Assembly: GCF_029227855.1 (NCBI RefSeq)
Contig: NZ_CP074356.1
DNA: 64,000 nucleotides
Direction: 5' to 3' (one strand)
From: Escherichia coli
GTDB taxonomy: Bacteria > Pseudomonadota > Gammaproteobacteria > Enterobacterales > Enterobacteriaceae
Part shown: in pieces, positions 43,446 through 54,753 of the stretch
Position numbering within the stretch: position 1 is the first letter of the stretch
Layout: each line of letters begins with the position of its first letter
Program-made: the position numbers and the translations under genes
The notes under the pieces: model-generated
The model's input: only the letters and a program-made list of their open reading frames with translations
Databases searched by the model: none
Told to the model about the DNA's origin: nothing

Positions 43446-44933
43446 ATGTGGTTTCACTTTCTGCAATTAAGGTCGGCTTTGAATATCTCCTCTGCTTTAC
43501 GCCAGGTTGTTCACGGCACTCGCTGGCACGCTAAACGCAAGAGCTACAAAGTGTTGTTCTGGCGCGAGATAACCCCGCTTGCTGTTCCTATCTTCATGGA
43601 GAACGCCTGTGTCCTGTTGATGGGTGTCCTGAGCACTTTTCTGGTCAGCTGGCTGGGAAAAGATGCGATGGCCGGCGTGGGATTGGCGGACAGCTTCAAT
43701 ATGGTCATTATGGCATTTTTTGCGGCTATCGATCTTGGTACCACTGTCGTTGTGGCATTTAGTCTCGGTAAGCGGGATCGACGACGAGCGAGGGTGGCGA
43801 CGCGGCAGTCATTGGTGATCATGACGTTGTTTGCCGTGCTGTTGGCAACGCTTATTCATCATTTTGGCGAACAAATTATTGATTTCGTTGCGGGTGATGC
43901 CACGACAGAAGTTAAAGCACTGGCGTTGACTTATCTGGAGCTGACGGTACTTAGTTATCCAGCAGCTGCCATCACTTTGATTGGTAGCGGGGCACTTCGT
44001 GGTGCAGGGAATACGAAAATACCGCTACTGATTAACGGTAGCCTGAATATTCTTAATATTATTATTAGCGGCATATTGATTTACGGCCTTTTCTCCTGGC
44101 CGGGACTGGGATTTGTCGGGGCTGGGTTGGGGTTAACCATTTCTCGTTATATTGGCGCAGTTGCAATTTTGTGGGTGCTGGCGATTGGTTTTAATCCTGC
44201 GCTAAGGATTTCGTTAAAGAGCTATTTTAAACCGCTGAATTTTAGCATTATCTGGGAAGTCATGGGGATTGGTATTCCAGCAAGTGTCGAATCAGTATTA
44301 TTTACCAGTGGTCGGTTATTAACCCAAATGTTCGTTGCCGGGATGGGGACCAGTGTTATTGCCGGAAATTTTATCGCGTTTTCAATTGCGGCTCTTATCA
44401 ACTTACCCGGAAGTGCGCTCGGCTCTGCTTCTACGATCATTACAGGCCGAAGGTTGGGAGTAGGGCAGATAGCGCAAGCAGAGATTCAGTTGCGGCATGT
44501 GTTCTGGCTGTCCACTCTTGGATTAACGGCCATCGCCTGGCTAACGGCTCCCTTTGCCGGGGTTATGGCATCGTTTTACACCCAGGATCCACAGGTTAAA
44601 CATGTCGTTGTGATTCTGATTTGGCTAAATGCTTTATTTATGCCTATTTGGTCTGCCTCATGGGTGCTACCCGCTGGATTTAAGGGTGCTCGCGATGCAC
44701 GTTACGCCATGTGGGTTTCTATGTTGAGCATGTGGGGTTGCCGGGTTGTAGTCGGTTATGTGCTGGGAATCATGCTTGGCTGGGGTGTGGTTGGTGTCTG
44801 GATGGGAATGTTTGCCGACTGGGCTGTGCGGGCCGTGCTGTTTTACTGGCGAATGGTTACTGGACGTTGGCTGTGGAAATATCCTCGATCTGAGCCGCAA
44901 AAGTGTGAAAAAAAGCCAATTGTGTCGGAATAA
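43446..44933 (+). CDS. yeeO: MATE-family efflux transporter YeeO
   Basis: The Met at MWFHFLQLRSALNISS gives 495 aa and 12 TM helices. The 546-aa track ORF would start inside the asnU promoter, so the shorter start is preferred. Confidence 0.88.
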   Translation: MWFHFLQLRSALNISSALRQVVHGTRWHAKRKSYKVLFWREITPLAVPIFMENACVLLMGVLSTFLVSWLGKDAMAGVGLADSFNMVIMAFFAAIDLGTTVVVAFSLGKRDRRRARVATRQSLVIMTLFAVLLATLIHHFGEQIIDFVAGDATTEVKALALTYLELTVLSYPAAAITLIGSGALRGAGNTKIPLLINGSLNILNIIISGILIYGLFSWPGLGFVGAGLGLTISRYIGAVAILWVLAIGFNPALRISLKSYFKPLNFSIIWEVMGIGIPASVESVLFTSGRLLTQMFVAGMGTSVIAGNFIAFSIAALINLPGSALGSASTIITGRRLGVGQIAQAEIQLRHVFWLSTLGLTAIAWLTAPFAGVMASFYTQDPQVKHVVVILIWLNALFMPIWSASWVLPAGFKGARDARYAMWVSMLSMWGCRVVVGYVLGIMLGWGVVGVWMGMFADWAVRAVLFYWRMVTGRWLWKYPRSEPQKCEKKPIVSE

Positions 44934-44986
44934 ACGACAAAGTGCAGATTATTTCAGCAAACGATTTCAAATTTAAAAAACAGGCT

Positions 44987-45015
44987 TTGACATTGTGGAT
45001 GGGCATCGCTAATAT
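44987..45015 (+). promoter_or_regulatory. asnW sigma70 promoter
   Basis: TTGACA (44987-92), a 17-nt spacer and TAATAT (45010-15), then a GC-rich discriminator. Confidence 0.75.
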
Positions 45016-45033
45016 TCGCCTCGTTCTCACGAT

Positions 45034-45109
45034 TCCTCTGTAGTTCAGTCGGTAGAACGGCGGACTGTTAATCCGTATGTCACTGGTTCGAGTCCAGTCA
45101 GAGGAGCCA
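45034..45109 (+). tRNA. asnW: tRNA-Asn (anticodon GUU); integration target of the island
   Basis: 76 nt identical to asnV/asnU. Its 3' 16 nt form part of the island direct repeat. Confidence 0.98.
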
Positions 45110-45113
45110 AATT
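45094..45113 (+). repeat. attL direct repeat (tRNA 3' end)
   Basis: CCAGTCAGAGGAGCCAAATT. Confidence 0.9.
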
Positions 45114-45270
45114 CAAGTTTTCATGCTTATCTGTACGTCTCTATTTGTTTACGATTCAGTAAGTTAGCGTGAAAATCCTTCCCGGTGCGTATCTGGTTTT
45201 CTCTCTGTATCGGGATAATTTGGTGGTCAGATCTGGGGTCAGTTTGGTTCGATTCTGGAGTGACCCCCAA

Positions 45271-46532
45271 ATGTCTTTAAACGATTCTAAAATCCGCAAG
45301 TTAAAACCCTCTTCCCGTCTGGTAAAACTCTCCGACTCTCACGGTCTGTATCTGCTCGTCAATCCGGGCGGTTCACGCATCTGGTATCTCAAATATCGTT
45401 TCAACGGAAAAGAATCCAGAGTCAGTCTTGGCGCATACCCGCTTGTCTCACTGGCAGAAGCCAGGCAACAGCGCGACGGTATCCGTAAGTTACTGGCGCA
45501 GAATATCAACCCGGCGCAGCAGCGCATGGCGGAGAAAGCGGCCTGCTCCCCTGAAAAGTGCTTTAAGGCAGTGGCGCTGGCCTGGCACAAAACCAACAAA
45601 AAATGGTCGGCTGATTATGCCGCCCGTATTCTCGCCAGTATGGAAAACCATATCTTCCCGGCGATTGGTCATCTGCCAGTTGCCACTCTTAAAACGCAGG
45701 ATTTACTGCTTTGTTGCGGGTTATCGAGGATAAAGGCTTTCTGGAAGTCGCGTCCCGAACCCGGCAGCAACTCAGCAACATCATGCGCTATGCCGTTCAG
45801 CAGGGGCTTACCGAAAGCAATCCGGCGCAGCATCTGGATGGCGTTGTCGCCTCACCCGTAAAGAATCACTACCCCGCGTTACTGCTGGAGCGGTTGCCCG
45901 AACTGCTTGGCCGCATCGGTGACTATCAGCAGGGCCGGGAGTTAACACGGCTGGCGGTGGTGCTGACGTTGCACCTGTTTATCCGTTCCAGCGAACTGCG
46001 TTTCGCCCGCTGGAGCGAGATCGATTTCAGGCACAAAATCTGGACCATCCCCGCCACCCGCGAGGCAATCGACAAAGTACGGTTTTCGGGGCGTGGCGCA
46101 AAAATACGTACCCCGCATATCGTGCCGCTCTCCCGCCAGGCGATTGCCATTCTGAAACAGATACAGGAGCTTTCCGGCCATCTGGATCTGGTGTTTCCCG
46201 GTGATCATAACCCGTACAAGCCAATGAGTGAAAACACCACCAACCGGGCGCTACGCCTGATGGGGTATGATACGAAAACTGAAATCTGCGGGCATGGACT
46301 CAGGGCGATGGCCTGTAGCGCCCTGGTGGAGTCGGAGCTGTGGTCACGCGATACGGTGGAGCGGCAAATGAGCCACCAGGAGCGTAACAGCGTGCGGGCA
46401 GCCTATGTGCATAAAGCGGAGCATCTGGAGGCCAGAAAGGCCATGATGCAGTGGTGGTCGGATTATCTGGATGTGTGCCGCGAGGGGTATGTTGCGCCGT
46501 ACATTTATGCCCGGCAGCATAAGGCAGCCTGA
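45271..46532 (+). pseudogene. int: P4-type tyrosine integrase, disrupted by a 1-nt frameshift near 45706-45710
   Basis: The N-terminal part (MSLNDSKIRKLKPS...LKTQDLL) is in frame 1. The continuation (LLRVIEDKGFLEVASR...HGLRAM...RAAYVH) is in frame 3. Joining needs one extra base. The catalytic HxxR and Y are present downstream. Confidence 0.85.
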
Positions 46533-46568
46533 ATCAGAAATAACGGAAATCATTAAAAATGTAAAAGC

Positions 46569-46594
46569 AGATCCTGATTGACCGGGATCTGCTT
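46569..46594 (+). terminator. Hairpin after the integrase gene
   Basis: agcagatcc-tgattgacc-gggatctgct. The T tract is weak. Confidence 0.4.
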
Positions 46595-46737
46595 ATTGTA
46601 TTGAGAAGTATTACCATTTTTCTGTTATTATCAATCGGAAAGTATCTAAAAATATTTGGCCCCAAATAATTTTGGTGAAAACCAATCAATAAACCATTTA
46701 TCAATAGGTAAGTACCGGAAATTATTCCAGTAGAATA

Positions 46738-47092
46738 TTTTCAGGCGATTGCCTATTAATAAATACATTATTGATAGATAAGTGCCTTCTGTGATTTGTC
46801 CGCAAATCACAGAAGATGAAAACCTATCAATACGGGATATTTTCACGGAAATACCAATTAATACTCCAGAATATCTCCTGACCATATACTCTGAAACCTG
46901 TAAGAACTGCATCAGATATTGAGAGACCATATAGATATAAGTCTGAAATTATTTTGTTTCCAATGATTTCAGGCGAAAACCTATCAATGCATCTGTTTTC
47001 AATAGGCAGCCACCTTCCGTGATTAACATGTTAATCACGGAAGGTGAAAAGCTATCAATAATCGATATTTTCACGGAATTACCACTTAATAC
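46738..47092. repeat. Two diverged ~127-bp tandem units (46738-46864, 46967-47092; period ~229 bp), each centred on a 30-32-bp palindrome
   Basis: Both units start with tttcaggcga and end with gatattttcacggaaNtaccaNttaatac. Palindrome A is cttctgtgatttgtccgcaaatcacagaag (46786-46815). Palindrome B is the perfect 32-mer ccttccgtgattaacatgttaatcacggaagg (47013-47044). Confidence 0.85.
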
Positions 47093-47688
47093 ATCCCAAA
47101 AAATGCGCCATAAAATACCGGGCAATCTTTCCTGATACACATTATCACTGCACCAGCTATACAGAGACAAAATAATCTGCACCAGCCCCTGTAAATCGGT
47201 TATTTGTGCCAGTGTCCCGCCGCTCTACCTGTTCAGGGTTGTGCCAGTTTCTGGCCCTTTGGTTTTCGGCCCTTTCCGGTCAGGCGCTGTTACCCTTATT
47301 GCCCCTTAACCTTTATGACCCTTTCCCTTTCTGACGCAACCAGTTTATTTTGAAATGCTCCATGACAGTCTGCACCAGACTGTATTTTCACCACAGGATA
47401 ACGATCACAAAGTGCAAAAAAATAACATGAAGCACCGAAGATTGTTAATCTATATGTAGCAGGTAATGATGTCAAAAACTGTCGCAGCATTTTTTATAAA
47501 ATTATGAGACATTCTGTGGGCATATAATATATGTCACAAGATGCAGGAAAACAAAGAGAGAGTTTTCAGATATAATCCTGCGTTAGAATTAATGTGATGC
47601 CCCGGTGAATTTACATTTTAAAATTTCCCTGTCCCGTAATATCGGTAAAAACGATTGAAACACCAACTATTAATCGGGAACGTCTCGA

Positions 47689-47707
47689 GTGATTACAGGG
47701 TAATCAC
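47689..47707. repeat. Third GTGATTA...TAATCAC palindrome
   Basis: gtgattac-agg-gtaatcac shares half-sites with the palindromes at 46786 and 47013. Confidence 0.7.
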
Positions 47708-47869
47708 TATAATATCCCGGCAAACTATATTGGTTAAGCAGGAGAATCTGATCAGTTGATATTTATTCGTCATGCTGTAACGATATTTTCACAATATAAA
47801 CCCGTTCGCCCCCTGCGCCAGATCCGGTACAGAGGGTACGATAAATCGCTGTCGTTACGCAGTAACGTA

Positions 47870-48487
47870 CTATTTTGCGACAATCATGAATTCAGTCATT
47901 CCTCCCTCCAGCGGTAGCCGTACACCTGTTTCACCCAGCGACCGCGACCGTCGCCATGACCCAGATCCGTCGCCGTCAGCGCCAGTGACTCCTTTTCGCT
48001 GAATCCCTGCGCCAGTATCCAGGACTGTCGTATAACGGGGACGCCCGCCTTTGGTGCCAAATACCACTTTTAACCGGGTTTCACCGCGGGAAATGGCTTT
48101 CAGCCACGTTTTCAGCGACTGTGAACTCTGTACCGCCTCCTGCGAACGCAGCCCCATCAGCCGCGCAATCTCCAGCGCTGCTGCCAGCCCTGCGTCCTGA
48201 GTACGGGCTTTCTCCATCACCTGCCTGCGTCCAGCCTGTCTCAGCACGGCCCGCAACGCTGCCATTTCGTTTTGCAACGTTCGTAAACCAATATCCAGCT
48301 CCAGCCGTTCCTCAATGTAGCATTCGATATGGCGAACCTTGATCTGCTCCACCCGCTGGATCTGGATATTCAGCGCCCGTAAATGTTCACTGAACCGTTT
48401 TGTAATATGGATACGGTCATTCACCGTTGTGAAGCTGCCGCCCGCTTTCTTCGCCAGCGCCTTCATTTCACTGCTTAATTTACTCAT
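47870..48487 (-). pseudogene. Degraded integrase/recombinase-like gene (N-terminal domain retained, internal deletion plus frameshift)
   Basis: The 205-aa ORF starts MSKLSSEMKALAKKAGGSFTTVNDRIHITKRF...IKVRHIECYIEERL, which looks like a recombinase N-terminal domain (recalled). After ...GGRPRYTTVLD the sensible continuation (WILAQGFSEKESLALTATDLGHGDGRGRWVKQVYG) lies in another frame (48021 to 47896). Confidence 0.45.
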
Positions 48488-49403
48488 GAATCCCTCTGCA
48501 ACAAAAACAAACAGTCTCCGGCGTGTGCTTTTTGGCTGCGCCAGAACGATACCTTTACGCCGGAGTGGTAGTTTGTTGAGGTTTAGGGAGTTTCAGGCTG
48601 TACGCAGTACAGACTGCCTGCGAAGCAGGAGTGTCTCCGGGGCTTCTTGCCCCCCTCGGTATCGATCTTTTTCTCCTTTACTCTTAGCTGACAGCGGCCC
48701 CAAAGGGCATGTCAGACGGCGGAAATATGGCGCAGGCCAGAACTGGCGCGGCTTGTGGCGGTGAGTTGTGCGGCGTCACTTTGCTTTTTCGCTGGCGCGA
48801 CCAAAGTGACGCCTCGTCTGGTGCAGGGGGTAAACGTTACGTTTCTGGTGCAGGGTGACGGTCACGCGGCAGCAAAGCCTGACGGCAATGCAGGCCGCAG
48901 CCCGTCAATGTAAGGCGCTGGTTGTCAGCAGAAGATAAAACCCGGCAAAGCCAGAGTGTCAGCCCGTAAAGCCGGGTATCTGGTGCAGTGATGGTGTATA
49001 TGTACGTCAGTCTCAGATGCAGGTATTTTTGCATCCCCGGCGTTTTCAGAGATCAACGCCGGTAAAGGATGCCATGCTGGCGAAGCCAGGCGCTTCTTTC
49101 AGACGTGAAGCGACAAAGGGACTGCCCGGAGGCAGTTTGTTGCAGGCGGGAGACTGCGCCATTATTTCTGGTGCAGGAAGGAAAAACTGTTTCCGGGTTT
49201 AAAAGATTGTTTGCTTACCTGGTGACGGAAAAACTGCCGCGCTTCGCTTGTCTTCTCCCGGCGCGCTGCCAGCAAAAGCAGGCAGCGCGCCGGGAGAGTC
49301 TGGTTTTACTGTAACAATGCGCCTGACGGTTCAGCCATCAGGATCGGCGTTTATGCATGAGTCTTCCGGTACGGTTGCCCCGATCATCGATGTATCTGGA
49401 CGG

Positions 49404-49592
49404 TCAGATAATTTCCGGTGATGTTTCCAGCGCATCCGCAATCAGTTTTTCGCCGCGCGGCCTGGAGCGGGTCAGCGCATTTGCCAGCGTGGAAGACGCC
49501 AGCCCGGCCCTGCGGGAAACCTCAGCCAGCGATGTTCCCTTTTTTCTCAGGCCCGCGATAATATCGGCGGGGTGCCAGTCGGGTTGCATCAT
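49404..49592 (-). CDS. Ner/Nlp(SfsB)-family HTH DNA-binding protein, C-terminally truncated by TGG to TGA
   Basis: 62-aa ORF (MMQPDWHPADIIAGLRKKGTSLAEVSRRAGLASSTLANALTRSRPRGEKLIADALETSPEII*). The frame continues PSRYIDD... after the stop, where family members read W-PSRY. Confidence 0.65.
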   Translation of the reverse strand: MMQPDWHPADIIAGLRKKGTSLAEVSRRAGLASSTLANALTRSRPRGEKLIADALETSPEII

Positions 49593-50050
49593 GCTGGCCT
49601 CCCGTCGATAACCTGTATGCCGTCAGCAGTACATATCCAGCGTGGGGCGTTCAGATTGGCGGCAAAATACCAGACCAGTTCGCACAGCAGCCCGGTCAGC
49701 GTGGTTTCGGTTTCCGGCAGCAGCACGTGGCCGTTCAGTATCTGCGTCAGCGCCAGGCAGTAATCGCAGAGTGATCCTGCATCAGGCTCAAAACCGGGTG
49801 AAACATCGGGAAGATCATTCGTAATAAACCCGTCAATCAGATGTGGTGGGATCGGCTCGTTCAGCGTGGGCCGCAACAGTGCAAGACAGGTATTAAGCCT
49901 GCCACAGAGCGCCGTTTTCAGCGCCGGATCGCAGCACTCGATGAGCGTTGTGGCAACGCGATCGCAGTACTCCGCCAGATCGGTGAAATCGGTAGCGGCA
50001 CTAAAGGGAACAGCAAGTAAATTGCATTCAGAGGTGAGAGTAGTCGCCAT
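49589..50050 (-). CDS. Hypothetical 153-aa Cys-rich acidic protein, translationally coupled to the Ner-like gene
   Basis: The ORF (MATTLTSECNLLAVPFSAATDF...) ends in an ATGA overlap with the downstream Ner-like start. No family was recognised and the SD is weak. Confidence 0.45.
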   Translation of the reverse strand: MATTLTSECNLLAVPFSAATDFTDLAEYCDRVATTLIECCDPALKTALCGRLNTCLALLRPTLNEPIPPHLIDGFITNDLPDVSPGFEPDAGSLCDYCLALTQILNGHVLLPETETTLTGLLCELVWYFAANLNAPRWICTADGIQVIDGRPA

Positions 50051-50571
50051 AAGGCCGTCTACAGTGAGTGATAAATATTCCAGCCACTGGAGAGGCTAAT
50101 CTCACGGGTGGTGGAACCGGACGGGGTTAGCCTTACCAGCCTCACTGACACTGGCGCGTCTTTCGACGCCCCCGCCCGATCCCGCCATTGAGATGAGACC
50201 GTGCGCGACACACAAATATTGTATCGTCAGTGAGGATCTTCAGGAGGCTAATCCCGACGCCTGATTTTGCAGGCGCGGCGCAACAATACAATGTTCGGTA
50301 ATTTTCAGCAAGAGGTTTAGCGGAAGCAGACGCACAGGAAAATACAATCACGCGATAAATATTAAATACAATTATATTTATATAAAATATATATTGAGCA
50401 ATATGCAGACACTTTCCAGTAAATATCCTGTCAGTTAATTCGTCCCGTTGATATCAGTCAAAAAAATAAATGTAAAAAGAGCGTATTTCGTTTCATACAG
50501 TAACGTTATTTATCATTTTGTCCGGTGTCGCCAGCATCAGGCCAGATGAACCATAAAAAAGGATATCAGCG

Positions 50572-53500
50572 ATGAGCGGAAAACCGGCAGCACGTCAGGG
50601 CGATGCCACAATGAAAGGTGGCCCGATAGTCCAGGGGTCGGCAGGCGTGAGGATTGGCGCGCCAACCGGCGTGGCCTGTTCAGTGTGCCCCGGCGGATTC
50701 ACTTCCGGTAACCCGGTGAATCCGCTGCTCGGTGCAAAAGTACAGCCCGGCGAAACCGATTTCGCGCTGCCCGGCCCGTTACCGTTCGTGCTCTCCCGCA
50801 CCTACAGCAGCTACCGGACGAAAACCCCTGCGCCCGTCGGTATCTTCGGTCCTGGCTGGAAAGCACCCTTTGATATCCGCTTACAGATACGCGATAACGA
50901 ACTGATACTCAATGATAACGGTGGCAGAAGCATTCATTTTGAGCACCTGTTTCCCGGTGAGGATGGCTTCAGCCGCAGCGAATTATTCTGGCTGGTGCGC
51001 GGCGGCGTGGCGAAACTGAATGAAAGTCACCGTCTTGCCCCACTCTGGCAGGCTCTGCCGGAAGAACTCCGCATGAGTCCGCATATTTATCTGGCGACGA
51101 ACAGTCCGCAGGGGCCGTGGTGGATACTCGGCTGGAGTGAGCGGGTACCGGGTGTGGATGAGGTGCTGCCTGCGCCATTGCCGCCGTACCGGGTGCTGAC
51201 CGGCCTGGTGGACCGCTTCGGGCGTACCCTGACCTTCCGGCGTGAGGCAGTTGGCGAATTTACCGGGGAAATCACCGGCGTGACCGATGGCGCAGGCCGT
51301 CAGTTCCGCCTGGTGCTGACCACGCAGGCGCAGCGGGCGGAAGAGGCCCAGCAGCAGGCGGTTGCAGCCGGAGCAAAACGACCAGATATCCCGGTTTCAT
51401 TGCCGGACTATACAGAATATGGCCGGGATAACGGCATCCGCCTGTCAGCGGTGTGGCTGACGCATGACCCGGAATACCCGGAGAATTTACCTGCCGCGCC
51501 ACTGGTGCGCTACGACTGGACGCCACGCGGTGAACTGGCGGCGGTGTATGACCGCAGCGGTACGCAGATGCGCCACTTTACTTACGATGATAAATACCGG
51601 GGCCGGATGGTGGCGCACCGTTACGCAGGCAGGCCGGAGATGCGTTACCGCTACGACGACATCGGGCGCGTGACGGAACAACGTAATCCGGCGGGTTTAA
51701 GCTACACCTATCAGTATGAGAAAAACCGCATCATCATCACCGACAGCCTGAACCGGTGCGAGGTGCTGCATACAGAAGGCGAAGCCGGGCTGAAACGGGT
51801 GGTGAAAAAAGAGCACGCTGACGACAGCGTCACACAGAGTCAGTTCGATTCCATTGGCCGCCTTCAGTCACAGACGGATGCGGCAGGCCGGACGACAGAA
51901 TACAGTCCGAATGTGGTGACGGGTCTCGTCACACGCATCACCACGCCGGACGGCAGGAAATCGGAATTTTACTATAACAACCAGAACCAGTTAACCTCAG
52001 CATCCGGGCCTGACGGACTGGAAATGCGCAGGAAATATGATGAGTACGGGCGTCTGACGCAGGAAACCGCTCGCAACGGCGATATCACCCGCTACAGTTA
52101 TGATAATCCGCACAGTGAATTACCCTCTGCAACTGAAGATGCGACGGGTAGCCGCAAGCAGATGACGTGGAGCCGTTACGGGCAGTTACTGACTTTCACC
52201 GACTGCTCAGGCTACCAGACCCGTTATGAATACGACCGCTTTGGTCAGATGACGGCGGTCCACCGTGAGGAAGGTGTCAGTCTTTACCGCAGCTATGACA
52301 GCCGTGGTCAGTTAATCTCGGTGAAAGATACGCAGGGCCGTGAAACGCAGTATGAGTACAACGGTGCAGGCGACCTGACCGCCATTATCACGCCAGACGA
52401 CAACAGAAGCGAGACACAGTACGATGCGTGGGGAAAGGCCGTCAGTACCACGCAGGGCGGGCTGACGCGCAGCATGGAATACGACGTTGCCGGACGTGTC
52501 ATCAGCCTGACCAACGAGAACGGCTGTCACAGCGACTTCAGTTACGATGTGCTCGACCGCCTGATACAGCAGAGCGGCTTTGACGGGCGGACGCAACGTT
52601 ACCGTTACGACCTGACCGGGAAACTCACGCAGAACGAGGATGAGGGGCTTGTCACCCTCTGGCACTACGACGAATCGGACCGTATCACACACCGCACGGT
52701 GAACGGCGAACCGGCAGAGCAGTGGCGGTATAACGCCCACGGCTGGCTGAAAGAAATCAGCCACCTGAGCGAAGGTCACCGGGTGGCGGTGCATTACGGC
52801 TATAACCGTAAGGGACGTCTCACCGGCGAGCGCCAGACGGTGCATAACCCGGAGACGGGGGAACTGCTCTGGCTGCATGAGACAAAACACGCCTACAACG
52901 AACAGGGTCTGGCAAACCGCGTCACGCCGGACTGCCTGCCTGCTGTGGAGTGGCTGACCTACGGCAGCGGTTACCTGGCGGGGATGAAGCTGGGCGACAC
53001 GCCGCTGCTGGAGTACGCGCGCGACCGCCTGCACAGAGAAACGGTGCGCAGCTTTGGCAGCATGGCAGGCAGTAATGCCGCATACGAACTGACCAGCACA
53101 TACACCCCCGCAGGCCAGTTACAGAGCCAGCACCTGAACAGCCTGGTGTATGACCGTGACTATGGGTGGAATGACAACGGCGACCTGGTGCGCATCAGCG
53201 GCCCGCGACAGACGCGGGAATACGGCTACAGCGCCACGGGCAGGCTGGCGAGTGTGCGCACCCTCGCACCGGACCTGGACATCCGCATCCCGTATGCCAC
53301 GGACCCGGCGGGCAACCGGCTGCCGGACCCGGAGCTGCACCCGGACAGTACACTCACAGTGTGGCCGGATAACCGCATCGCGGAGGATGCGCACTATGTC
53401 TACCGCCACGATGAATACGGCAGGCTGACGGAGAAGACGGACCGCATCCCGGCGGGTGTGATACGGACGGACGACGAGCGGACCCACCACTACCACTACG

Positions 53501-54753
53501 ACAGCCAGCACCGCCTGGTGTTCTACACGCGGATACAGCATGGAGAGCCACTGGTCGAGAGCCGCTACCTCTACGACCCGCTGGGACGGCGAATGGCGAA
53601 AAGGGTATGGCGGCGGGAGCGTGACCTGACGGGGTGGATGTCGCTGTCGCGTAAACCGGAGGAGACATGGTACGGGTGGGACGGCGACAGGCTGACGACG
53701 GTGCAGACTGACACCACGCGTATCCAGACGGTGTACCAGCCGGGAAGCTTCACGCCGCTCATCAGAATCGAAACAGACGTGACCGAACTGGAGAAAGCGC
53801 AGCGGCGAAGCCTGGCGGAGAAGTTACAGCAGGAAGGGAGTAAAGATGGTCACGGCGTGGTGTTCCCGCCTGAACTGGTGCGGCTGCTGGACAGGCTGGA
53901 GGGGGAAATCCGGGCAGACCGTGTGAGTGACGAAAGCCGGGCGTGGCTTGCGCAGTGCGGGCTGACGGTGGAGCGGCTGGCGGCACAGATCGAGCCAGTT
54001 TATTTGCCTGAGCGAAAAATACATCTTTATCACTGCGACCACCGGGGACTGCCGCTGGCGCTTATCAGTACTGAAGGTGCAACGGAATGGCGTGGGGAGT
54101 ATGACGAGTGGGGGAATCAGCTTAATGAGGAGAACCCGCATCATCTGTTCCAGCCATACCGCCTGCCGGGGTAGCAGTACGATGATGAATCGGGGCTGTG
54201 CTATAATCGTTATCGTTACTACGAGCCGTTACAAGGGAGGTATATTACACAGGACCCGATTGGGTTAAATGGGGGGTGGAATTTATATAAATATCCGCTG
54301 AATCCAATAAATTATGCAGATCCTCTTGGCTTAGCCGTAGATATAAACCACTTCCCAGTCAACGAAGACATACGAAATTATGCAGAGAAAGTTTGGAATA
54401 ATCCTAATATCATTACAATTGGAACACATGGTGATCCTCAATCAGTATATGATGAAAATTATAATAAGATAGATGTCAAGACATTAGCTAATGAGGTTCG
54501 AAATCATCCTAAATTTAAACCTGGAATGTCAGTAAGACTGTTATCCTGTAATACAGGAAAAGGAAATAACTCTTTTGCACAGCAATTGGCAGATGAACTA
54601 GGTGTGAGAGTCTATGCTCCTGACCAATATGACTGGTACTATTCAAATGGTAAGGTAGAGCCTTGGGGAGGATTCTATGATGCAAACAATCAATTGCAAA
54701 TGGACACGAATCAGCCTGGACATGAGTTTACATTCAAGCGAAGGAAACCATAG
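50572..54753 (+). pseudogene. rhs: PAAR-Rhs polymorphic toxin interrupted by a single in-frame amber codon (TAG 54172-54174)
   Basis: The N terminus is a PAAR-like domain ([11 protein letters not shown]...[10 protein letters not shown]), followed by many YD repeats. After ...PYRLPG* the same frame continues [31 protein letters not shown]...YADPLGL (DPxGL at 54319-54333) and a 139-aa AT-rich tip ending at 54753. Confidence 0.9.
54334..54750 (+). other. Rhs C-terminal variable (toxin) domain, family not recognised
   Basis: 139 codons follow DPLGL and composition switches abruptly to AT-rich. The string ...[10 protein letters not shown]... is followed 40 residues later by ...[11 protein letters not shown]... 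(His codon 54427, Cys codon 54547). Confidence 0.6.

Follow-up and report, generated by a model that had tools for sequence, protein, structure and literature searches.

EFASI is an RNA motif that was reportedly described by Weinberg et al. in 2017. In the literature, EFASI and STAXI are catalogued orphan motifs that are associated with integrase genes, and no functional study came up in searches on EFASI, on the Pfam families of Int2 or on the combination of C4, IsrK and integrase. The immI system of P1 follows a logic of antisense RNA control of read-through, in which the c4 RNA is met by a1/b1 targets. As far as it is quoted in PMC12370729, the family description places EFASI upstream of an integrase gene in enterobacteria, often several hundred bases downstream of STAXI, and the Rfam text excerpted there states that the RNA "likely functions in trans". 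Transcripts of both motifs have been amplified by RT-qPCR from E. coli vesicles (PMC12370729). For STAXI itself, the neighbours described are an integrase gene and a c4 antisense RNA (Weinberg et al. 2010; PMC2864571).

The window considered here, a stretch of 64 kb from Escherichia coli, is a genomic island at tRNA-Asn, and its host belongs to the Enterobacteriaceae, as expected for EFASI. Within it, positions 48488-49403 are bracketed on the minus strand by a Ner-like gene and by the decayed integrase-domain gene int2. This gene-less 0.9 kb is a conserved, heavily folded non-coding stretch that carries catalogued RNA motifs, EFASI and a diverged STAXI, and does not consist of decayed genes. 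Among the interpretations offered in the initial annotation, a structured leader is supported, whereas decayed genes, an origin and an ssDNA promoter are not.

Genomic setting and conserved fold

The interval is conserved across at least six genera, with lengths of 811-1068 nt in 29 distinct sequences. Conservation acts at the nucleotide level, and frame-breaking indels of 1-2 nt lie inside strongly conserved sequence. The gene order isrK/C4, 153-aa ORF, Ner-like gene, spacer, EFASI and int2 is common to Escherichia, Klebsiella, Cedecea, Pseudocitrobacter, Salmonella arizonae and Serratia (Table 1), and the module occurs in 415 of 5426 complete E. coli genomes. As at the P1/P7 immI and Salmonella IsrK loci, matches to isrK / c4-a1b1 and C4 begin the upstream genes on the same strand, so the segment can be regarded as the far end of a C4-type unit. 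The downstream genes differ, being a 153-aa ORF, a Ner-like regulator and an integrase here and icd/ant there.

Several genes of the island are damaged in the window, namely the P4-type integrase gene, int2 and the Ner-like gene. The latter ends at a TGA (49404-49406) where relatives have TGG; its frame is about 22 codons longer in the closest relatives and originally reached about 49338. Many E. coli strains have an intact int2 (294 aa). The two deletions in the window copy are bordered by direct repeats of 9-13 nt and not by copies of the motif discussed below, and a sequence search for a solved structure of Int2 returned none.

Phage records and viral contigs gave no evidence of a phage-borne unit: none of the contigs matched, and the single matching record was a short Salmonella "phage" entry without annotation. 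Plasmid matches came from Salmonella records only; six of them, non-mobilizable and 9-500 kb in size, contain EFASI, and one of these carries mtfA and tRNA-Asn, which suggests chromosomal DNA. In pESI-like plasmids the fragment comprises the conserved block and a toxin-antitoxin.

Table 1. Features of the interval and its surroundings (window coordinates)
Feature	Position	Strand	Basis or remark
isrK / c4-a1b1 targets	50214-50289	-	upstream, same strand
C4 antisense RNA	50104-50192	-	upstream, same strand
153-aa ORF, without family	49589-50050	-	upstream, same strand
Ner-like HTH_35 gene	49404-49592	-	upstream of the segment
Former 3' end of Ner-like gene	49338..49403	-	alignment of relatives and ORF lists
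Hairpin H1, 18-bp stem directly after Ner-like gene	49255..49296	-	inverted repeat and covariation
Near-invariant tail AGAAGACAAGCGAAGCGCGGCAG after H1	49235..49254	-	alignment
Motif copy CTGCACCAG (= CTGGTGCAG on + strand)	49168..49176	-	upstream of STAXI-like part
STAXI-like segment, two putative hairpin-plus-pseudoknot units	48999..49137	-	alignment to STAXI matches of sister loci
Motif copy 48980-48988 inside 25-nt arm	48977..49001	-	inverted repeat
Hairpin followed by U-run	48941-48955	-	terminator-like, not conserved
5-bp hairpin ahead of conserved block	48916-48930	-	helix 5
Conserved block, 16-pair hairpin	48856..48907	-	alignment; helix 6
Two CTGCACCAG copies, 27 nt apart	48845-48853, 48818-48826	-	single-stranded spacers between block hairpin and H2
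Hairpin H2 (GGCGUCACUU...AAGUGACGCC), 10-bp outer stem	48773..48812	-	helix 8
EFASI RNA motif (Rfam RF02957)	48543..48670	-	full-length Rfam match
Leader end	48488..48565	-	stem, U-rich tail, ribosome-binding site
9-bp stem	48557-48565 (inside EFASI) with 48516-48524	-	haplotype comparison
Reverse-oriented motif copy CTGCGCCAG on + strand	48536-48544		in loop of 9-bp stem
U-rich tail	48500-48515	-	
GAGGG ribosome-binding site	48492-48496	-	
int2 ATG	48485-48487	-	
int2, integrase-domain gene (PF12834 + PF12835)	47870..48487	-	pseudogene here, two internal deletions
Five CTGCRCCAG copies (47148, 47177, 47370, 47813, 48007)	47135..48015	+	downstream of or inside 3' part of int2

RNA folding gave z = -10.5 for the minus strand and z = -4.2 for the plus strand, with 20 shuffles each. 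Across 65 proposed pairs, pairing is kept in 97.9% of cells; shuffles give 91.7%, and sliding the partners lowers the value to 32-53%. Compensatory changes, on both sides of the pair, were found in 19 pairs, and none of 500 shuffles reached any of the five measures. The stems covary on the int2-sense (minus) strand only. Pairs of U and G that are invariant or frequent turn into C-A mismatches if read on the other strand.

The hairpin H1 forms an inverted repeat with 20-nt arms (49254-49297). Changes on both sides occur in 10 of its 18 pairs, 97.7% of cells are paired, and some G-U pairs fit the minus strand only. The hairpin gctgcc...ggcagc, recorded earlier at 49266-49287, is present and proves to be the tip of H1. 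The idea that H1 terminates transcription of the Ner-like gene intrinsically was rejected, since the minus strand has no U-tract; for plus-strand transcripts a U-rich tail does follow H1, yet the U-G pairs of the hairpin fit the minus strand only. The 3' edge of the near-invariant tail that follows H1 (about 49231-49234) is a recurrent junction, where other lineages have a HigA cassette, other upstream DNA or a deletion to the start of rhs.

Further downstream, segment 48999-49137 appears from its sequence to be a diverged STAXI, homologous to accepted members. Rfam matches to STAXI (RF01728) in three sister loci (L038, L099 and L031, with 42, 41.8 and 40.7 bits) barely passed the cut-off of 40.5 and map onto it by alignment columns. 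In the window, Rfam STAXI gave no match within 48650-49420 at E<=10 or within 44000-52000 at E<=1, and the STAXI-like status of this copy therefore rests on the alignment to the sister loci. Read from the sequence, unit 1 comprises a hairpin at 49124-49133 and a GCUUC/GAAGC stem at 49091-49112, and unit 2 a CCGGCG/CGCCGG hairpin whose loop UCUC faces a downstream GAGA. Three stems of these units (helices 2-4) are kept with covariation, and the pseudoknot pairings are putative readings. A UUCG-loop hairpin lies at 49077-49089, and UUCG-type loops are present in relatives too. With STAXI RNA (RF01728; Weinberg et al. 2010) the segment has in common the UUCG-type loops, the proximity to an integrase gene and to a c4 antisense RNA and, putatively, the repeated hairpin-plus-pseudoknot unit. 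It differs in falling below Rfam detection, and a toxin-antitoxin cassette next to or within it in some lineages makes its context variable.

The block hairpin hardly varies between genera; a single pair at its foot covaries, one U-G pair is invariant, and a pattern scan found the block in 84 metagenome loci. The short palindrome gtgac-g-gtcac does exist at 48855-48865, but it belongs to the 3' arm of the block and is a lineage-specific accident, not a conserved palindrome. In H2, three pairs have changes on both sides and 100% of cells are paired. Minus strandedness, a known RNA family for two of the hairpins, the non-conservation of gtgac-g-gtcac and the longer original Ner-like gene were all absent from the initial annotation.

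EFASI and a candidate leader of int2

The EFASI match covers model positions 1-133 of 133 and scores 100.8 bits against a gathering score of 51.2 (E = 1.6e-20). Two of the small hairpins that had been picked out by eye, ctgtac-gca-gtacag at 48597-48611 and cctgc-gaa-gcagg at 48616-48628, are present and both fall inside it. EFASI ends 55 nt before the int2 ATG. Each of the six E. coli and Salmonella loci with int2 has it upstream of that gene, as do 8 of 10 loci of other genera (the upstream sequence is missing in the remaining two) and, among diverged metagenome loci, 17 of 18. The STAXI-homologous segment, below the Rfam STAXI threshold in the window, lies 330-470 nt upstream. The window member is full-length and high-scoring and, as described for its family, stands upstream of an integrase gene. 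Beyond the Rfam summary as quoted, a covarying 9-bp stem ties the 3' single-stranded part of the motif to sequence outside the model, near the int2 ribosome-binding site. The block hairpin, H2 and the CTGCRCCAG spacers, as constant neighbours, likewise go beyond the quoted text.

The 9-bp stem occurs as three haplotypes, CTCCGGCGT/ACGCCGGAG (n=30), CCCCGGCGC/GCGCCGGGG (n=23) and CCCCGGCGT/ACGCCGGGG (n=10), and its pairing survives two double changes. It is not a canonical intrinsic terminator, since the U-rich tract begins 3-15 nt after the stem and the loop measures about 32 nt. As in attenuators and riboswitch-like leaders, a large conserved fold stands ahead of a stem, a U-rich tail and a ribosome-binding site, and the 5' arm of the stem lies inside the fold. 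The U-tract here, unlike theirs, is not adjacent to the stem.

The best explanation of the segment is a non-coding, strand-specific, highly folded RNA leader that controls int2, a reading to which we give about an even chance and whose mechanism is deduced. The idea of a structured non-coding leader gains from the strong EFASI match, from the 19 compensatory pairs and from a position before the integrase gene that is fixed in about 80 loci. The lack of a sigma-70-like site on the minus strand of the segment and the amplification of EFASI and STAXI transcripts from vesicles also speak for it. On the minus strand, such a leader would run from the Ner-like tail through H1, the diverged STAXI double pseudoknot, the near-invariant hairpin block with CUGCACCAG spacers, H2 and EFASI to the 9-bp stem with its U-rich tail, the ribosome-binding site and the int2 start. 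It would share a transcript with the genes upstream (isrK/C4, the 153-aa ORF and the Ner-like gene), and its RNA would act in cis to set the transcription and translation that reach int2. The likeliest control point would be the EFASI domain, whose 3' part may pair with the downstream arm beside the U-rich tract and the ribosome-binding site, like an attenuator or a pseudoknot switch. The dense fold may also keep Rho and nucleases away from the 0.85 kb of untranslated RNA. By sequence, RNA and single-stranded DNA of the same strand are indistinguishable.

In strain F2_81 (L106), the Ner-like gene is separated from the leader by two terminators and a toxin-antitoxin cassette. At least in this strain the leader would need its own promoter, and none was found. 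Within the leader, a promoter around the -300 motif copy, where some lineages have TGTAAT, was considered and set aside as weak and absent in the window. In the window the system is probably dead, as int2 and the Ner-like gene are both damaged.

The CTGCRCCAG motif and possible roles in DNA

An RNA leader alone does not explain the CTGCRCCAG copies downstream of int2, the strand switch and a recurrent deletion endpoint at 48978. The four CTGGTGCAG copies listed earlier are indeed in the segment, on the plus strand at 48818, 48845, 48980 and 49168, and three more lie on the minus strand at 47148, 47177 and 47370. These seven copies compare with 0.53 expected, and none of 100 shuffles reached seven. 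For the wider motif CTGCRCCAG, 10 of the 14 copies in the 64-kb window fall within 47148-49176 (1.2 expected), six on the plus strand followed by four on the minus strand, with the switch near EFASI. This orientation rule is kept in 15 diverged lineages with very few exceptions. The arrays have a spacing of 27-35 nt, and copy number changes by units of 27-28 nt.

Individual copies differ in their conservation. The copy at 49168-49176 reads CTGCGCCAG in many relatives. The CTGCACCAG copy at 48845-48853 was found in every related locus, that at 48818-48826 in Escherichia lineages only. The presence of the former in the 84 metagenome loci is by construction, the copy having been part of the search pattern; it is invariant in protein-seeded loci too. 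The arm 48977-49001 forms a 25-nt inverted repeat with 47135-47159, the left arm, which lies among the downstream plus-strand copies. No inverted arrangement was seen in about 100 loci, and an inversion switch between the 25-nt repeats was rejected. Pairing of the leader CUGCRCCAG with CUGGCGCAG after EFASI was likewise discarded as a general mechanism, since diverged lineages lack the reverse copy.

Among the loci listed, 48978|48979 is a common endpoint of three independent deletions; it lies at the int2-proximal edge of a motif copy, 1 nt away. The partner ends fall within rhs, 3 nt ahead of the yeeJ ATG and within yeeJ, with TA at each partner junction. The slot at about 48938-49233 holds a different sequence variant in other lineages, or a PemK/MazE cassette beside a STAXI copy, and the HigA cassette enters at the 49231-49234 junction. 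Deletions that end repeatedly next to one copy of the 9-mer offer a lead to a DNA-level activity that could shape island content.

A DNA recombination or binding platform is a tentative alternative, possible though on balance doubtful. The CTGCRCCAG copies would be candidate binding sites for Int2, the P4-type integrase or the Ner-like protein, set in two opposed arrays around EFASI-int2, and with folded parts acting as single-stranded DNA they would mediate site-specific breaks, deletions and module exchange. The clustering and orientation of the motif, the regular spacing and copy-number units, the 25-nt inverted repeat, the shared deletion endpoint and the exchange of variant, PemK/MazE and HigA content in the slot all speak for it. 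Lambda-like attP arm-type arrays and integron attI beside intI offer a parallel, with opposed copies of a short motif around a centre by a tyrosine-recombinase gene, an exchangeable-content slot and breakpoints recurring at one copy. The resemblance is structural only. The arrays here extend over about 2 kb against about 250 bp there, no core site was identified, and no target duplication is known.

Against such a platform, about 100 loci showed neither an inversion of the int2 segment nor an excision product, and the downstream arrays are absent in several genera, e.g., in Klebsiella indica and Cedecea lineages. Known core sites of tyrosine recombinases do not resemble the motif, a near-palindrome of 9 bp that is centred on 3 bp. 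Microhomology at the junctions is 2 nt in two of the three deletions and up to about 8 nt at rhs, and could reflect end joining at a fragile hairpin. All motif copies are sense in two convergent integrase transcripts, and an RNA-level factor would therefore explain the strand switch equally well. The platform and the RNA leader can coexist.

A bolder proposal, which we consider unlikely, is that the folded leader and the opposed CTGCRCCAG arrays form an integron-like working site of Int2. The enzyme would cut by the motif, possibly on folded single strands, and would trim or swap toxin-antitoxin cassettes, the STAXI unit and island cargo, so remodelling P4-type islands at tRNA-Asn and tRNA-Phe. 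If this were true, EFASI and STAXI would be DNA-level or dual RNA/DNA elements, and the role of these orphan motifs would be answered.

Trans-acting RNA, origin and coding alternatives

EFASI, and perhaps the STAXI-like part, could also be independent trans-acting sRNAs with other targets, their place beside int2 reflecting shared regulation only. The Rfam wording quoted in PMC12370729 and the presence of both RNAs in vesicles (PMC12370729) agree with this; the 9-bp stem with its U-rich tail could serve as an sRNA terminator, and H1 and the small hairpin at 48941-48955 could set transcript ends. However, no sigma-70-like site was found on the minus strand within the segment, and no promoter-like site stands ahead of EFASI on that strand. 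In about 80 loci the distance between EFASI and the int2 start is fixed at 50-110 nt, EFASI was never seen without adjoining int2 sequence, and conservation is unbroken from the block via EFASI to the ribosome-binding site. This alternative is improbable.

An ssDNA promoter of the Frpo/ssi type or a replication origin, used when the island enters a cell single-stranded, is very improbable. Weinberg et al. (2010) did raise a single-stranded DNA role for STAXI from its proximity to genes of DNA-handling proteins (PMC2864571), the structure is strand-specific, and the short motif repeats are iteron-like. But a scan restricted to duplex sigma-70 spacing found no -35/-10-like hexamer pair on either strand of 48488-49403, contrary to the promoter-like element proposed at first, and, as regards the suggested origin, 46415-54572 is free of DnaA boxes. 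Genes of the rep, relaxase or oriT type are missing from the neighbourhood, and the region shows no break in composition or skew. The segment has 55.7% GC against 49.9% for the window, so that the description "GC-rich" is correct in direction and the excess modest. UUCG-type loops such as those noted above favour RNA, following an argument made in PMC2864571.

That the segment is a remnant of protein-coding genes, or that a small ORF in it is genuine, for example the 52-aa protein annotated by PGAP at 48755-48913, is hardly credible: PGAP does call short hypothetical proteins in the record of E. coli NRZ14408 (identical to the window) and in other strains, decay does occur in the island, as the damaged neighbours attest, and real genes (HigA, PemK/MazE) fill the slot in other lineages, but the annotated ORFs vary in place and frame among strains, indels break the frame inside strongly conserved sequence, and invariant blocks with covarying stems are unlike the residue of a decaying gene. 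The ORFs at 48339-48764(+), 48837-49034(-), 49017-49202(+) and 49069-49314(+) exist as first described, and a Pfam scan of eight proteins, five of them segment ORFs, gave no match. ORFs of at least 30 aa range from 30 to 194 aa, and the most widely shared stop position is common to 13 of 26 lineages at most. The three codon positions have even shares of the variable sites, without third-position excess, in a test that has little power according to the int2 control. No trace of HigA was found by tblastn in the segment, and the comparison with related lineages revealed no intact gene in homologous sequence. The initial impression that 48488-49403 contains no credible gene is thus borne out, and its suggestion of decayed larger genes is not.

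The short "hypothetical proteins" called here automatically are very probably not genes. EFASI and STAXI are now placed in one continuous conserved unit of 0.9 kb with fixed neighbours, which include a covarying stem after the Ner-like gene, a near-invariant hairpin, a strand-switching 9-mer and a stem that joins EFASI to the integrase ribosome-binding site. From this arrangement follow concrete hypotheses, open to experiment, on how the integrase is controlled in genomic islands of a class that is widespread among enterobacteria.

EFASI and the probable structured RNA around it

The gene-less segment between the Ner-like gene and int2, the integrase-domain gene, carries a full-length EFASI RNA (Rfam RF02957). 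The name is short for "Enterobacteriaceae, Frequently Around STAXI and Integrases". In the Rfam text as quoted in PMC12370729, this RNA typically has STAXI a few hundred bases upstream of it and an integrase gene on its downstream side, and its function is described as unknown. All four hairpins of the initial annotation are readable in the sequence. Those at 48597-48611 and 48616-48628 are two EFASI stems, and that at 49266-49287 is the tip of a longer stem, H1. The fourth, gtgac-g-gtcac, forms part of a larger conserved hairpin, in its 3' arm, and is not palindromic in other genera.

STAXI (RF01728), as described by Weinberg et al. 2010, is a pseudoknot in repeated copies that occurs close to genes for integrases and other DNA-handling proteins, and sometimes close to c4 RNAs. 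Even at E<=10 the Rfam search returned no STAXI match in the window; in three sister loci a match barely over threshold lies between the Ner-like gene and the conserved block. Through A2, an alignment of related loci, these matches map to window 48999-49137, where the sequence allows two hairpin-plus-pseudoknot units and a UUCG-loop hairpin to be drawn. We therefore call this part STAXI-like: by alignment it is homologous to accepted members, yet it fails the family's score test. In a diverged EFASI lineage (L030 and relatives), a conserved AAGGAG stands just ahead of EFASI; in L030 itself it is followed by an AUG opening an 8-codon frame, and this AUG is missing in the window lineage.

Coordinates of the segment, its structured elements and the neighbouring genes
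Feature	Position	Strand	Description
P4-type integrase gene	45200-46532		Frameshifted here; next to tRNA-Asn
AT-rich DNA, about 1.3 kb	between P4-type integrase gene and int2
int2	47870-48487	minus	"Integrase domain" gene, Pfam PF12834 and PF12835; frameshifted
Segment under study	48488-49403	minus
9-bp stem	48557-48565 with 48516-48524	minus	5' arm inside the single-stranded 3' part of EFASI
EFASI RNA	48543-48670	minus	Full-length; Rfam, 100.8 bits (cut-off 51.2)
Block hairpin	48856-48907	minus	Nearly invariant
H1	49255-49296	minus	18-bp stem
Ner-like HTH_35 gene	49404-49592	minus
153-aa ORF	between Ner-like gene and C4 RNA		No family
C4 antisense RNA	50104-50192	minus	Rfam, 62.2 bits
isrK and c4-a1b1 matches, overlapping	50214-50289	minus	Slightly sub-threshold: 45.5 bits (cut-off 50) and 43.8 bits (cut-off 46.7)
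rhs gene	beyond the C4/isrK unit	plus

Folded as RNA, the minus strand of the segment reaches z = -10.5 against shuffled sequence and the plus strand z = -4.2. Eight helices with 65 pairs were tested on alignment A2: H1, three STAXI-like stems, a small hairpin, the block hairpin with an apical two-pair helix, and a further stem, H2. Paired cells amount to 97.9%, against 91.7% in shuffles and 32-53% with partners slid; in 19 pairs both sides change, and none of 500 shuffles equals the observed value on any of five measures. H1 alone accounts for 10 covarying pairs. In the block hairpin a single pair, at the foot, covaries and one U-G pair is invariant; U-G pairs there and in H1 assign the fold to the int2-sense strand. 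The 9-bp stem occurs in three compensating versions (63 of the 65 sequences in which the arm was found) and stands ahead of a U-rich tract, GAGGG and the int2 ATG. The suggestion of a structured non-coding region is supported by the EFASI match, the fold z-scores, the covarying stems and a nucleotide-level conservation interrupted by indels.

Island setting and variation among relatives

The window aligns with E. coli chromosomes at 100% identity, and the segment belongs to a genomic island adjoining tRNA-Asn (45034-45106). Of 5426 complete E. coli genomes, 415 carry the segment, in every case on the chromosome. Its relatives were collected with the intact Int2 protein of APEC O78 as query (E. 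albertii, E. whittamii, Serratia, Klebsiella indica, Cedecea, Pseudocitrobacter, Salmonella arizonae and others), and 84 metagenome loci with a 32-nt invariant stretch as pattern. The recurring order is isrK/C4, 153-aa ORF, Ner-like gene, spacer, EFASI and int2, with a P4-type integrase gene converging on int2 beside tRNA-Asn or, in other genera, tRNA-Phe. The Ner-like gene ends 811-1068 nt ahead of the int2 start in 29 distinct sequences, and Rfam still detects EFASI where Int2 identity is only 55-68%.

The contents of about 48938-49233, between a Ner-side invariant tail and the conserved block, differ by lineage, and this interval behaves as a variable slot. Comparison of four loci (L002, L105, L106 and L003) shows the STAXI-like sequence in the window, another sequence variant in CAVP776, and a PemK/MazE cassette adjoining a STAXI copy in F2_81 and Salmonella pESI-like plasmids. 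At the Ner-side edge (about 49231-49234), the junction alternatives are a HigA cassette (O145-type strains), unrelated upstream DNA, or a deletion extending to the rhs start.

The C4 and isrK/c4-a1b1 matches form a P1 immI/IsrK-like unit at the head of the 153-aa ORF, whose product has no match in Pfam, NCBIfam or PHROG, and the Ner-like gene. The latter stops at a TGA (49404-49406) where relatives in A2 carry TGG (Trp), and in the closest relatives its frame extends some 22 codons further, to around 49338. The window gene has probably been shortened by a nonsense mutation; the segment's first 66 nt (49338-49403) once belonged to its coding sequence. Relative to intact 294-aa copies, int2 is a pseudogene in the window: two internal deletions have removed about 87 and 186 nt, and at their flanks lie overlaps of 13 and 9 nt, not motif copies. 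Damage to all three genes, int2, the P4-type integrase gene and the Ner-like gene, probably leaves the system inactive in the window.

Between the convergent integrase genes, 46540-47130 is AT-rich (32-45% GC) and non-coding, with a 131-nt direct repeat (46734-46864 and 46962-47092, 73%) and two long imperfect palindromes (46685-46775 and 46758-46843). Islands of the Klebsiella and Cedecea type have a much shorter stretch here, with the integrase stop codons about 210 nt apart.

Motif arrays and a shared deletion endpoint

The four CTGGTGCAG copies counted earlier in the segment are present, among 7 in the window (0.53 expected). Their general form, CTGCRCCAG, is a near-palindrome (CTG-CRC-CAG) with 14 copies in the window, 10 of them within 47148-49176: six on the plus strand up to 48544, then four on the minus strand from 48818. 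Across 15 diverged lineages the copies keep this orientation, sense upstream of int2 and reverse downstream, and exceptions are very few. The arrays are often spaced 27-35 nt apart, and the downstream one is missing in some genera. One upstream copy lies within a 25-nt arm (48977-49001), the inverted repeat of 47135-47159. The copy at 47370-47378 lies in a perfect 19-nt palindrome, 47362-47380 (ACAGTCTG-CAC-CAGACTGT).

In three rearranged loci (L008, L103 and L076/L024) homology is lost at exactly 48978/48979, 1 nt from the CTGGTGCAG copy within the 48977-49001 arm, and the int2 side is kept in each. The site is fused to the rhs interior in L076/L024 (window equivalent 53372), to a point 3 nt ahead of the yeeJ start codon (ATG) in E. 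coli Ch1, and to the yeeJ interior in E. coli AR434. The undeleted partners read GGATA/ACCGC, AGGTA/AGCAT and CGCTA/AGCCA, against GGGTA/TCTGG at the site, with TA at every partner junction. An end shared by three independent deletions points to a break that recurs next to this motif copy.

Possible functions

The most likely function of the segment, held with moderate confidence, is that of a cis-acting structured RNA leader. It would be transcribed together with the upstream C4-type unit, as suggested by the lack of any promoter-like site found on the minus strand within the segment. It would set the amount of transcription and translation reaching int2, mainly by way of the EFASI domain and its tie to the stem beside the ribosome-binding site, in an attenuator-like step. 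Established for the segment are its identity, its conservation, the strand of its fold, the covariation and its position. Against this leader stand the non-canonical "terminator", the two terminators ahead of the leader in the F2_81 lineage, and the motif arrays, which lie outside what an RNA reading covers.

The strand-switching arrays and the recurrent endpoint, both beyond the reach of that reading, would be accounted for by a platform acting at the DNA level, for recombination or for the binding of proteins. Every motif copy, however, has the sense orientation with respect to the two convergent integrase transcripts, and an RNA-binding factor would therefore explain the strand switch equally well; this main rival is possible but rather unlikely, and may coexist with an RNA role. 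That the segment encodes free-standing sRNAs is more doubtful still.

Decayed genes or small ORFs are very improbable. The four short ORFs listed initially exist; a Pfam scan of the segment's ORFs gave no match. The stop position of ORFs of at least 30 aa is common to at most 13 of 26 lineages, with widely varying lengths, and PGAP "hypothetical proteins" change location from strain to strain. Alignments A1 and A2 show strong nucleotide conservation interrupted by 1-2-nt indels; variable sites are evenly distributed over codon positions, a weak test, as the int2 control showed. HigA fills part of the interval in O145-type strains, and no trace of a HigA remnant was found in the window segment. 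These results speak against the proposed remainder of larger genes. The segment is modestly GC-rich (55.7%, against 49.9% for the window). An ssDNA promoter or an origin, also proposed, has an equally slight chance, as hexamer pairs were not found in the segment, nor DnaA boxes in 46415-54572, and a rep gene is absent.

The segment is thus of a known kind, its core being a textbook member of a catalogued, functionally orphan RNA family together with a sub-threshold relative of a second one. In the literature searched, we found no description of the continuity of the whole 0.9-kb unit, of H1, the invariant block or the stem from EFASI to the ribosome-binding site, or of the strand-switching 9-mer arrays and the recurrent deletion endpoint. 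The absence of a gene has an ordinary answer, and the locus adds usable leads on the function of EFASI and STAXI.
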